Positions 7,826 through 10,966 of a stretch of 64,000 bases of DNA are shown piece after piece. Numbering within the stretch: the first letter of the stretch is position 1; the number at the start of each line of letters is the position of its first letter. The DNA comes from Escherichia coli (GTDB taxonomy: Bacteria; Pseudomonadota; Gammaproteobacteria; Enterobacterales; Enterobacteriaceae), in assembly GCF_041248615.1 (NCBI RefSeq), contig NZ_CP158426.1. The stretch is one strand, 5' to 3'. Both the position numbers and the translations under genes were made by a program. The notes beneath the pieces were generated by a model. That model did no database searches and was not told where the DNA came from. It worked only from the letters and a program-made list of their open reading frames with translations.

Positions 7826-8202
7826 GAAGCTGACCAGACAGTCGCCGCTTCGTCGTCGTCCTCTTCGGGGGAGACGGGCGGAGGGGAGGAAAGTCCGGGC
7901 TCCATAGGGCAGGGTGCCAGGTAACGCCTGGGGGGGAAACCCACGACCAGTGCAACAGAGAGCAAACCGCCGATGGCCCGCGCAAGCGGGATCAGGTAAG
8001 GGTGAAAGGGTGCGGTAAGAGCGCACCGCGCGGCTGGTAACAGTCCGTGGCACGGTAAACTCCACCCGGAGCAAGGCCAAATAGGGGTTCATAAGGTACG
8101 GCCCGTACTGAACCCGGGTAGGCTGCTTGAGCCAGTGAGCGATTGCTGGCCTAGATGAATGACTGTCCACGACAGAACCCGGCTTATCGGTCAGTTTCAC
8201 CT
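7826..8202 (+). ncRNA. rnpB: RNase P RNA component (M1 RNA)
   Basis: 377 nt from GAAGCUGACCAGACAGUCGCC... to ...GGUCAGUUUCACCU; I recognise the M1 RNA sequence, including the GGAAAGUCCGGGCUCCAUAGGGCA core. Confidence 0.95.
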
Positions 8203-8390
8203 GATTTACGTAAAAACCCGCTTCGGCGGGTTTTTGCTTTTGGAGGGGCAGAAAGATGAATGACTGTCCACGACACTATACTCAAAAGAAAGCGGCTTAT
8301 TGGTCAGTTTCACCTCTTTTAACGAAAACCCGGCAGCGTAAACTGGCGGGTTTTTGCTTTTTGGAGCATAGTGTAAGATGAATAAATATC
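8153..8390 (+). repeat. Tandem direct repeats (~100-113 bp units) duplicating the rnpB 3' end plus terminator
   Basis: Unit starting AGATGAATGACTGTCCACGACA...GGTCAGTTTCACCT...GGCGGGTTTTTGCTTTTGGAG appears twice in full (from ~8153 and ~8254) and a third time partially (~8376). Confidence 0.8.
8212..8238 (+). terminator. rnpB rho-independent terminator
   Basis: GC stem (acccgc-ttcg-gcgggt) followed by a T-run, directly after the M1 RNA 3' end. Confidence 0.7.
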
Positions 8391-8429
8391 TACGGTATTA
8401 ATAATAGACTTTGTAAGAAATTATTAAGT

Positions 8430-9617
8430 CTATATTGCATTTAAAAGGTCGTAATCATACGTATAGTCCTCTCTGGTAAAATATTGCTTCTCTGAGTTAT
8501 AAGCTTCATATGTGTTATATTTTACGACCTCAAAGCAATTGTCTGGAGAATTTTCGTCTTTCTCGGGTATATTATCTGGAAGGAATTCCTCTGAGCTAGA
8601 GTCCTCTATGTCTAAATCTGTATTGTAATTAATTTTTGGAACGATCAGATAAGCATTTTCTTTGACGCTTTCATAATCTTTAATGATTATATCGATGTAA
8701 TAATCTATTTTTTCTAATGAGAATGCTTTCATCTCTGGTAATCTAATTCTGTTCAAGTAATTGTTAATTTTCGATGAGCTTTTATATATTTCTTTTGTTA
8801 ATTCATTTTCTAATTCATCTGTTAGAGTTGCTCTTGGTATAGATTCTATAATTGCAAGTCTCATAATTTTTAATTGTTCTTCGGTAATATCTCCAAGCGC
8901 ATTTAAACAACTTTCGACAAGCTTAATTTTTTCTTCAGAATACATATCGTTAATGCTTGTTATAACAGGCGTTATTTTTAGTAAATAATCCCAGGAGATT
9001 GTGGCGTTTTGTTTTGAACTAACGAAATTTACCTGAAACATGTTGGCATTAGTAAAATCTGTGTCATCCAATTTAAAAGGATTTAAAATTGTATTGGCCA
9101 TATGTTTATCTGTAAAATCATAAAGTTCTAAATCGACATTCCGTAAGTCCAGAGAGGATAGATCAACTATACCTCCAGTCCCACAACTAAAGATTACGTT
9201 CAACCTCCTGATTTCATTGTAAATGTCTTTCAATGGGCAATTAACATTGATATTGCCTGTGGATATTTCCTAGTTTTTTAACGGTTCATTAATTGTAAGT
9301 TCACAGGTATTGTCTGATCGTTGAATAATTCGGGCGTTATAACCAAAAAAATCCATACGAAGAGAGGAGTCATTATAAAGAATTACATTTTGTAAGTACG
9401 CTAATTCTTTTTGAAAATCACCAGTGATAATGCATTTCCCACCTGGTTGTAACGCGTTAAGTAAAGTGACCATTTCAATAGAGGTCTGTTTTAGTTTTTC
9501 TATGCCTGGTGCTAGTGCTTCGAGGTTATTTCCTATGGGGCTTTCAGGAAGGTCATTCATTTTTCGACGGGCTAAATCACTACTAATATCATTACCAATT
9601 GATGAAACAGGGGACAT
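8430..9617 (-). pseudogene. yhaC: yhaC-like gene interrupted by an in-frame TAG at 9270-9272; pentapeptide-repeat-containing protein of unknown function
   Basis: ORFs 9270..9632 and 8430..9233 are in the same frame, separated by one TAG and 12 sense codons; combined read-through length from MSPVSS is 395 codons. Confidence 0.7.
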
Positions 9618-9638
9618 TATTTTATCCTTCATAAATAA

Positions 9639-10178
9639 TCAATAAAAATCATTATTAAAATGATCGGGTGAAAAAAAGAGAATTTGCCAACAATCTGAAG
9701 GAATGGAGGTTTTATTAAAGTACGTAGGGGGGGTTAAGATGGCTTCTTTTCGGGTGAATTTTGCACAATACTTAGAAATCGTCTCCTTAATACACTCCAG
9801 CTCTTTTTTATTGACGGCTGAGCAAGTACATTGTTCGCCAAAAGGTGCAAAAGTGCCTACATCTAATGTTTGTATGATATAATCGTCATGTTCTCCTGTA
9901 GAAATATCTATGATGAATGGACTCATATTTTCCGGTTGGATTCGAATCATGACAGAAGGAACATCGCCTTGATAGAAGTTCAATGCAGTAATTGCAGATA
10001 ATACTCTCCGCAGTTCATTACTTATACTGTATATTTTATTAACGTCATTGGTGGAGACAATTTCTGCAAACTTTCTTTTTACCGTCCAATAATCAATATT
10101 TCTGTTGTGATTGTTAACCACTGCGTGCATTGGCGGGATTGAAGGGTGAAAAATATGTGCAATTGGGAAGCCTTTCAT
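9639..10178 (-). CDS. yhaB: Uncharacterised protein YhaB
   Basis: ORF track 9639..10238; trimmed to internal ATG giving 179 aa (MKGFPIAHIF...); AT-rich. Confidence 0.8.
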   Translation of the reverse strand: MKGFPIAHIFHPSIPPMHAVVNNHNRNIDYWTVKRKFAEIVSTNDVNKIYSISNELRRVLSAITALNFYQGDVPSVMIRIQPENMSPFIIDISTGEHDDYIIQTLDVGTFAPFGEQCTCSAVNKKELECIKETISKYCAKFTRKEAILTPPTYFNKTSIPSDCWQILFFSPDHFNNDFY

Positions 10179-10433
10179 TGATGCCTGCCTTGTCATCATG
10201 ACAAACAATAATAGATGCTTATTTTCCTCGCACGGCACTTTCGCACTATCAAAAAACGCTCATTTACCCGGCATTACAGTAAACGAAGCAACATTCTGTG
10301 GCCTACGCCGATCAAAAGCTCTGTGAAAATTCCCCTTGTTGTCTTTGGCTGACCTTATCGCGGCGACCAGCAATTATTCGTTTTGTGATCCTCAACACAA
10401 AATGCTATTCGTCACCTATGAGGGGAGAAGAAT

Positions 10434-10652
10434 TTATGGAAAACGATTGCATTCACAAAATGGCGTCCTGTCAGAAGAGAAAAAGTTGACGTTAATCAAT
10501 TGTTCGAGATGATCAATACCTGTATTCGAAATTTTAACATATTGATAAAATAAATGTTTGTTCTCCAACAAATAGCGTGAAAAAATGTGACGTGCCGCAT
10601 TATTTATCGCTGAAAATGATTTATTTATAATAAAATTTGAGAACTTGCTCAT
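10434..10652 (-). CDS. tdcR: Threonine dehydratase operon activator TdcR (72 aa form)
   Basis: ORF track 10434..10790 (118 aa); the conserved 72 aa form starts at internal Met (MSKFSNFIIN...); divergent from tdcA. Confidence 0.7.
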   Translation of the reverse strand: MSKFSNFIINKSFSAINNAARHIFSRYLLENKHLFYQYVKISNTGIDHLEQLINVNFFSSDRTPFCECNRFP

Positions 10653-10966
10653 TAAATTTAACTCAAAATTTGCCTGGTAATTATCCGGTAATTGCTTGAA
10701 ATATGGTCTCAGCCCCTTTTTTGTATTAACCACATAACGAATGATGTTATCGCCATAAAATATGGTTATCCCCGTCATTTTTTTTGACAAAAATCAGGGT
10801 TTATGCTGATTTTTATACTTTAACTTATTGATATATAAAGATATTTAATTGGAATAACGATACCATGGAAAGTATTGAAAGTTAATTTGTGAGTGGTCGC
10901 ACATATCCTGTTCATTTCATTTTGATACACTTCATGCCGTCAATGAGGTAATTAACGTAGGTCGTT
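10653..10966. promoter_or_regulatory. tdc operon promoter/regulatory region
   Basis: AT-rich intergenic region between divergent tdcR and tdcA; individual CRP/IHF sites not resolved. Confidence 0.5.

Follow-up and report, generated by a model that had tools for sequence, protein, structure and literature searches.

In this study we analysed the region downstream of rnpB, the gene for RNase P RNA (M1 RNA), in Escherichia coli strain NRZ14408, using a stretch of 64,000 nucleotides (nt) from RefSeq assembly GCF_041248615.1 (contig NZ_CP158426.1), in the following called the window. Directly 3' of rnpB the window carries tandem copies of the gene's own 3' end, followed by an AT-rich region with yhaC, yhaB and tdcR. 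A first-pass annotation of this DNA had taken the repeats for duplications of an attachment (att) site and the AT-rich region for the body of an old, decayed integrated element. We hold, with moderate confidence, that three unrelated things lie side by side here: a tandem array of terminators, an empty attachment site (attB) of an integrase family specific to rnpB, and a separate block with yhaC and yhaB (yhaCB).

A tandem array of terminators behind rnpB

The rnpB gene, encoding a class A RNase P RNA, lies on the plus strand at 7826-8202 and matches Rfam family RF00010 over its full length (1-367, 318.6 bits), in agreement with RefSeq. The 22-mer AGATGAATGACTGTCCACGACA is found exactly at 8153-8174 and again at 8254-8275, and the 3' strand of rnpB helix P1 (8179-8202) is repeated at 8292-8315; for each of the two repeats, 100 shuffles gave 0 matches. 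The repetition of the rnpB tail noted at first is thus real, but its count and unit size were not as described: instead of two full copies and one partial copy of ~100-113 bp, the window holds one further full unit and a 22-nt partial one, at spacings of 101 and 122 nt. The count and period given before fit E. coli K-12 and seem to stem from that strain.

Unit 1 (8153-8253, plus strand, 101 nt; repeat search) comprises the final 50 nt of the gene together with terminator T1 and the spacer behind it. Unit 2 (8254-8375, plus strand, 122 nt), the only further full unit, carries a pseudo-3' end made up of a head (8254-8274), a unit-specific 18-nt segment (8275-8292) and a copy of the att core described below (8296-8315, 1 mismatch). 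It is an unfaithful copy: the 18-nt segment, ACTATACTCAAAAGAAAG, stands in place of AGAACC in rnpB, which from the established M1 structure we take to be part of the 3' strand of helix P4. Partial unit 3, AGATGAATAAATATCTACGGTA (8376-8397, plus strand, 22 nt), follows in register, with its first 8 nt exact and 16 of 22 positions identical. The units stand head to tail without foreign DNA between them, and only terminator, spacer and 18-nt segment separate the copies. Tandem Repeats Finder overlooked the array because the units differ by indels; a repeat-family search and direct reading were used instead.

Both full units end in a strong hairpin on the plus strand, located at ~8210-8237 in T1 and at ~8324-8355 in unit 2. 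Each hairpin runs into TTTTTGCTTTT, so that both have the form of intrinsic (Rho-independent) terminators. A simple terminator scanner overlooked them, and folding found them (8203-8253: -20.7 kcal/mol, z -3.7; 8316-8375: -20.6 kcal/mol, z -2.9). The hairpin of unit 2 is of another type than T1 and has a longer stem. T1 of rnpB is well established in its function and has been employed as a terminator (PMC3643576). Inside or before the units no promoter-like site was found on either strand by a consensus scan and by eye, and an Rfam scan of the whole window gave rnpB as the sole match, with no small RNA family at the repeat units. A small open reading frame (ORF) for a basic peptide recurs in each unit (8256-8381 in the window, MNDCPR...). 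We rejected it as a gene since its frame is not conserved: it is broken by a 1-nt deletion in Klebsiella, and in Yersinia the ATG is shifted and out of frame.

That the repeats are a known feature of the E. coli rnpB locus, as the first-pass annotation had said, is correct; they have been known for about forty years, and repeats of ~113 bp 3' of the K-12 gene were reportedly described by Reed and Altman in PNAS in 1983. When the K-12 layout was re-read, we found three further units of ~113 nt, the last of them split by a repetitive extragenic palindromic (REP) element and followed by the same partial stub as in the window. Both strains share the locus, the head-to-tail copies of the M1 3' end with its terminator and the small basic ORF per unit. 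The window differs from K-12 in having one further unit instead of three, in the terminator type of unit 2 and in the absence of a REP insertion. The partial stub also closes the array in L002, L003, L004 and L039 (L numbers denote the loci we compared).

The number of further units varies within E. coli from 0 (L002, L003) over 1 (window) and 2 (L004) to the 3 of K-12, and many different lengths of the array were seen among a spread of 60 E. coli genomes. Salmonella Senftenberg has 6 further units, Klebsiella pneumoniae a full and a partial one and Yersinia one; one or two were counted in two Citrobacter species, while Pectobacterium retains a remnant only. None was present in the loci seen from Kluyvera, Kosakonia, Intestinirhabdus, Enterobacter, Serratia, Pantoea, S. 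arizonae and S. diarizonae. Two terminator types, CCCGCTTCGGCGGG and CCGNCAGYGYAARCTGGCGG, occur in shuffled order along the units of Escherichia as well as of Salmonella. As the types are common to both genera, an array of at least two units must predate their split. The units track the rnpB tail, terminator and spacer of their own species (for example in Yersinia), which argues for concerted evolution. With head-to-tail units, a polymorphic copy number and mosaic units, it behaves like a tandem array evolving by unequal crossing-over and gene conversion.

Some insertions and odd records were noted at the same locus. E. coli C012 (L039) carries a copy of the insertion sequence IS621 (IS110 family; L039:14609-15589) within the REP element that interrupts the last pseudo-unit. 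The same insertion is found in two other matches, and the array region thus also gathers REP-targeting insertion sequences. In S. enterica subsp. arizonae (L027) an insertion just 3' of rnpB splits T1 and keeps only its left arm and loop, with CCCGCTTCGGCG before and CTGAGGGATCC... after the junction; the ORF that follows starts with MPAHQVCQNFFRDALAPLHKYRQNALL... and appears transposase-like by eye only. If it is a transposase, rnpB would be without its native terminator there. Two contigs of 264 and 289 nt with coverage below 1x (L024, L030) contain rnpB 3' ends and pseudo-units of enterobacterial type, although their records are named Alkalicoccobacillus porphyridii and Microvirga antarctica; they most likely represent assembly contamination.

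The 3' end of rnpB as an integration target

The 3' end of rnpB is a real integration target, which is already documented, and in the window the site is empty. Integrase-bearing islets lie directly 3' of rnpB in 31 of 5426 complete E. coli genomes (12 with a first integrase type, 19 with two related types) and also occur at rnpB in seven other genera, namely Klebsiella, Enterobacter, Pectobacterium, Yersinia, Serratia, Pantoea and Budvicia. The general point made at first, that integration takes place at the 3' ends of structural RNA genes, is borne out at this locus. The islets range from 6 to 10 kb and are inserted in the last 20 nt of rnpB, CTTATCGGTCAGTTTCACCT, which in the window form the unoccupied attB core (8183-8202, plus strand). 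In strain Z1323CEC0002, the last base of rnpB is also the last with homology to the window, and 278 nt further on a tyrosine integrase (Pfam PF00589) begins. Two intact islets of 6.2 and 7.7 kb (L004 and L005) encode an integrase, a YagK/YfjJ protein or primase-helicase, a serine recombinase and a zinc-ribbon protein, together with an OB-fold protein in L004, and their ends (attL and attR) are a direct repeat of the 20-nt core. In the reconstructed attP this core lies between a perfect 11-bp inverted repeat, AACGTATTGTT and AACAATACGTT. The direct repeats that bound the islets consist of the 12-20 nt core only.

Relatives of the integrase at 45-81% identity are spread across Enterobacterales. 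In every context at 45% identity or above (eight E. coli loci and the seven other genera) the integrase lies ~220-290 nt after rnpB, and in 7/7 contexts from outside E. coli it follows ~280 nt after a full-length Rfam rnpB. This linkage holds with garK, rsmI or, in Budvicia, a gene for a GntP-family permease upstream of rnpB; one more distant relative (40% identity) is found at another site. The crossover can be placed in the first 12 nt of the core, because attL/attR identity in Klebsiella L032 stops there, and within CTTATCGGTCAG, because the gene end brought in by the element is slightly altered (CTTCAACT in place of TTTCACCT) in Klebsiella, Enterobacter and E. coli EH10-18-47. In these cases (L031:9703-9722, L032:9758-9777 and L040:14234-14253) integration changes the last 8 nt of rnpB; as we read the structure of M1, helix P1 thereby exchanges a G-U for a G-C pair. 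The Rfam score is essentially unchanged.

The flk genomic islet of E. coli was reportedly described by Feng et al. in the Journal of Bacteriology in 2008. It uses the site that adjoins the window's array and lies between rnpB on one side and the array and yhaC on the other in strains ECC-1470, NCTC11121 and EH10-18-47. Its content comprises an integrase, a YagK/YfjJ protein, a serine recombinase, the flagellin flkA and the repressor flkB, and we found a FliC/FljB flagellin and a fliC repressor in the islets of all three strains. The NCTC11121 integrase has 486 amino acids (aa), which fits 'Orf486', the tyrosine recombinase that excises the flk islet through its direct repeats (PMC3378880); the flkA-flkB islet of ECC-1470 has been described as well (PMC5422975). 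Other members of the family carry defence cargo, PD-Lambda-2 or CBASS-type (cyclic-oligonucleotide-based antiphage signalling) genes, in place of flagellin. The window, in contrast to the flk strains, has neither islet nor integrase nor attP remnant: no integrase follows rnpB at ~220-290 nt, and attL and attR cores are not found around an insert. Between rnpB and tdcA there is no integrase ORF and no match to PF00589, as the first-pass annotation had rightly noted. Wherever islets are present they sit between rnpB and the array, with yhaCB beyond both; the array is hence older chromosome and not the remains of an islet.

Several islets deserve mention for their content or arrangement. Proteins encoded at L033:15699-18054 match PD-Lambda-2 B and C in PADLOC, and the same Pfam pair occurs at the same position in Serratia (L035:16526-18886), where it is known from Pfam matches only, outside the PADLOC scan. 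In E. coli EH10-18-47 (L040:17769-19312) a CBASS-type cyclase and a 2TM effector adjoin the flagellin genes. A member of the Enterobacter cloacae complex (L031:9723-20364) has two elements in tandem at rnpB: the first (9723-18100) bears an integrase, and the second is a 2.2-kb integrase-less remnant (18121-20364) with a faint match to the PAAR motif. Both are bounded by the core CTTATCGGTCAGCTTCAACT, the three cores being 8.4 and 2.2 kb apart and the two distal ones each preceded by an attP left arm, which makes this a true case of the decayed att-flanked element that the earlier annotation imagined. At L001:23107-23811 and L040:22960-24107, IS26 and an IS3-family element truncate islets. Both insertion sequences are also associated with deletions in which yhaCB is lost along with the entire tdc operon, up to cyuP (L001) and yqiH (L040).

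Comparison of the units with att scars

Could the repeat units nevertheless be traces of integration? In this alternative they would be att duplications left by successive integrations, and yhaC-yhaB-tdcR would be the decayed body of an island that has lost its integrase. Each full unit does retain the att core, and rnpB is the proven target of a dedicated integrase family. However, the similarity of the units to rnpB begins 29 nt upstream of the core (8153 and 8254) and extends ~50 nt past the gene through terminator and spacer, where an att scar would start at the crossover core and end near the gene's 3' end, and the copies have no element-derived DNA between them. The comparison with integration sites in tRNA and tmRNA genes, in which a 3' fragment is displaced (Islander, PMC4383910; TIGER, PMC7192596), leads to the same distinction. 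The rnpB islets resemble such islands, as the integrase adjoins the RNA gene, the 3' end is restored and a displaced 12-20 nt core lies at the far end; the tandem units are unlike displaced fragments, as they extend upstream of the core and past the gene end with no island DNA in between. The supplement of TIGER also holds an island in the RNase P RNA gene (RNaseP_RNA) of M. avium (PMC7192596), which adds to the standing of this gene as a target.

Neither an attP arm (TTGAACGAAGCCGC or TCTTCTAAAACAATACGTTGG) nor the arm-type motif GGGATACA was found in 7000-12000, and attP left arms resembled neither the unit nor the part of rnpB that precedes the core beyond chance (for the latter, z -0.6 to 2.1 against shuffles). 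The attP left arm read as a diverged rnpB copy from TAGATG onward was considered and dropped, with z 1.4-2.1 in Enterobacteriaceae and z no higher than 0.1 in Pantoea, Yersinia, Serratia and Pectobacterium. If an element were to have an attP left arm carrying GATGAATGACTGTCCACGAC and the 18-nt segment, the units would count as attR-type scars. The core 20-mer had 0 matches in IMG/VR; the whole islet had no match among phages, and among plasmids only its serine recombinase matched. No genuine phage, plasmid or viral contig carried a unit or the core, all matches being chromosomal records or fragments filed in these collections. One such misfiled record revealed the array of Salmonella Senftenberg, and several entries of plasmid or phage collections, L042 (NZ_LN868944.1) among them, are pieces of chromosome of 0.35-5.4 Mb with garK, rnpB and tdcA. 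A match in such a collection should thus be verified before it is taken for mobile DNA.

Integrase-less remnants flanked by att sites do exist (L031:18121-20364), yhaCB is AT-rich, lineage-restricted and orphan, and in Citrobacter R56 the head of the pseudo-unit lacks the 1-nt insertion of the species' own rnpB and is therefore not a fresh local copy. Against this stands the independence of the supposed parts: units, present in 0-6 further copies, are found where yhaBC is missing, namely in Salmonella, Klebsiella, Citrobacter, Yersinia and four Escherichia clade genomes, and tdcR is ancestral. The left edge of the yhaCB block cuts a unit after GATGAAT rather than at the att core, and no islet cargo resembles YhaC or YhaB. 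Successive integration is in our judgement quite unlikely, and the view of the tandem units as att-site scars is not supported by the sequences compared here.

The AT-rich region

As first noted, the region is rich in AT, with 34.5% GC at 8398-10370 and 31.9% at 10371-10966 against 50.1% in the whole window, and yhaC, yhaB and tdcR are all present on the minus strand (ORFs, RefSeq). The idea of one ~2.5-kb island did not hold. Judged from its alignments, the region is composite: the block with yhaCB (8398-10370, blastn boundaries) is Escherichia-only, and the part with tdcR and the tdc promoter region (10371-10966), common to Salmonella and Kluyvera, is ancestral and simply AT-rich. Homology to the tdc side begins at 10551 in Salmonella Senftenberg, at 10747 in Kluyvera and at 10370 in all Escherichia clades, so that only 8398-10370 is restricted to Escherichia. 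In four Escherichia clade genomes (L010, L012, L018, L028) a truncated last unit is followed directly by homology that resumes at window position 10370-10372, and L020 and E. albertii have only fragments of the 8398-10370 block (both by blastn). In MOD1-EC7003, 53 nt of yhaC are left together with the sequence that lies upstream of yhaB, and the yhaB fragment of E. albertii spans 39 aa at 54% identity. By comparison, tdcR is found in all Escherichia loci at 57-79% identity (tblastn). Apart from fragments, yhaCB is absent from all 24 loci of other species. The first-pass annotation had proposed universal conservation of repeats and yhaBC across enterobacteria as the observation that would speak against an island; the repeats are indeed widely conserved, yhaBC is not.

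Homologues of YhaC and YhaB were found in E. coli and Shigella only. For YhaC this restriction, seen with a word-indexed search, was upheld in an exhaustive phmmer search of 1.84 billion representatives, which returned, besides fragments of YhaC and a second allele at 67% identity, no more than three weak matches of repeat type. This second allele class of E. coli (protein P0033, 389 aa, 65-67% identical to the K-12 protein) is present on 422 contigs, and its divergence is unusually deep for a single-species gene. The one family that YhaC matches is NCBIfam NF007262; neither protein matched Pfam or PHROG, and no informative match was obtained in NCBIfam or among PDB sequences. Searches of the islet cargo with YhaC, YhaB and TdcR (tblastn) gave nothing. 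Within the yhaCB block there is no integrase, transposase or PHROG match, and at its right edge no copy of core or arm. In the window strain yhaC is a pseudogene (8430-9617, minus strand) with an in-frame TAG at 9270-9272 in its translation, flagged by RefSeq for an internal stop, and in many strains yhaC and yhaB are deleted to stubs or pseudogenised. Of the usual marks of a genomic island, yhaCB thus shows a deviant composition and a patchy, lineage-restricted distribution, and it lacks mobility genes, remnants of such genes and flanking direct repeats. A horizontal origin is plausible from composition and distribution, whereas delivery by the rnpB integrase is not supported by what the block and its edges contain. 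A search of one literature library gave no paper that connects rnpB, yhaC and integration directly.

The remaining features complete the layout of the region, which is 100% identical to the NRZ14408 sequence. The orphan gene yhaB lies at 9639-10178 (minus strand; ORF list, RefSeq), tdcR at 10434-10652 (minus strand; RefSeq, NCBIfam NF008507) and tdcA begins at 10967 on the plus strand (ORF list, RefSeq). Upstream, garK is the neighbour of rnpB, and a promoter-like site for rnpB (GTGACA, 17 nt, TATACT; 10/12 matches in a consensus scan) lies at 7790-7818 on the plus strand, just 5' of the Rfam start.

A conserved pseudo-3' end

Head, 18-nt segment and P1 strand together form 60 nt that are identical between unit 2 of K-12 and a unit of Salmonella Senftenberg, whereas linker, terminator and spacer of the same two units differ. 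For comparison, the tdcR region is ~72% identical between E. coli and Salmonella. The 60 nt are nearly identical in Citrobacter and Klebsiella, and in an alignment of 12 units from 5 genera the first 60 columns are mostly invariant. The 18-nt segment matches at 14/18 positions in Yersinia, and its 3' part persists in Pectobacterium. Gene conversion from rnpB cannot explain this conservation because the segment has no counterpart in rnpB that could serve as donor. The conservation of the 60 nt, as read from the aligned units, hints at selection.

Hence it might be that the pseudo-3' end, with GCTATACCCAAAAGAAAG as its 18-nt segment, is itself a selected functional element to which the terminator is secondary, being neither a neutral duplication nor an integration scar. 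At the RNA level it may act as a cis decoy for M1 5' strands on read-through rnpB transcripts, as a processing signal or as an Hfq-type signal; for the last option AAAAGAAAG fits the (ARN)3 motif and is followed by a terminator with a U tail. At the DNA level it may serve as a spare, crippled attB and so influence the landing site of rnpB-specific islets. The age of the array, which has kept at least two units since before the Salmonella/Escherichia split, agrees with such a role. On the other hand, no promoter-like site and no Rfam family accompany the units, and the frame of the small ORF is not conserved. RNAalifold on the 12 units supports only the terminator stem, with one compensatory pair, and gave no covariation for the predicted pairing of head and P1 strand. 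The units seem dispensable, since they are absent from Kluyvera, Kosakonia, S. arizonae/diarizonae, Serratia, Pantoea and some E. coli; individual units have 1-2 substitutions in the 18-nt segment, and the segment is so short that the statistical case is thin. We regard a selected pseudo-3' end as a minor but real possibility.

Proposed origin and role of the array

How, then, could the locus have arisen? If it joins a terminator array, an empty attB and a separate yhaCB block, as we prefer to read it, the array was most likely founded by a local tandem duplication of ~101 nt that started at position ~328 of rnpB and ended ~50 nt beyond its 3' end. The copy would have gained the 18-nt replacement of the P4 strand and, because of this replacement in the established M1 structure, could not complete a ribozyme. 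The copy-number variation and the mosaic units would then reflect expansion, shrinkage and homogenisation by unequal crossing-over and gene conversion. The most likely role of the array would be back-up termination of the strongly transcribed rnpB ahead of the convergent yhaC, yhaB and tdcR, since each full unit keeps a strong hairpin and U run. Tandem terminators are known after highly expressed genes of stable RNAs, for example T1 and T2 of the rrn operons, and the array resembles these in that hairpins with U runs are repeated after a strongly transcribed RNA gene facing convergent genes. It differs from plain tandem terminators in that a pseudo-copy of the rnpB 3' end, 60 nt long and conserved across genera, goes with each spare. 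In other genomes the islets of 6-10 kb that tyrosine integrases insert come to lie between rnpB and the array, and the 3' end of the gene is restored in the process. The yhaC-yhaB block would have taken the place of the last part of the array and is undergoing decay; its arrival was probably horizontal, without sign of delivery by an integrase.

Four points weigh against this interpretation. The conservation of the 60 nt exceeds what a redundant terminator needs, which is why the back-up role may be incomplete. The origin of the founding pseudo-unit is inferred from sequence. The fragments of yhaB and yhaC in E. albertii and MOD1-EC7003 fit one old gain with later losses, or else transfers. 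Finally, the sample outside Escherichia is small (24 loci from a scan of genome contigs), so that the absence of units from a given genus is weak evidence.

The locus has been known before, and the cross-genus conservation of the pseudo-3' end is the only mildly new item. In conclusion, rnpB joins the genes for tRNA, tmRNA and 6S RNA as a dedicated integration target, and annotators should expect islets there. The integrase family specific to rnpB spans Enterobacterales and carries flagellin-switch or anti-phage cargo. Repeats and orphan genes are independent of each other, and yhaBC should not be annotated as an rnpB island. To our knowledge no function has been assigned to the rnpB repeats, and a unit-specific 18-nt segment conserved across genera gives these long-known sequences experimental interest.

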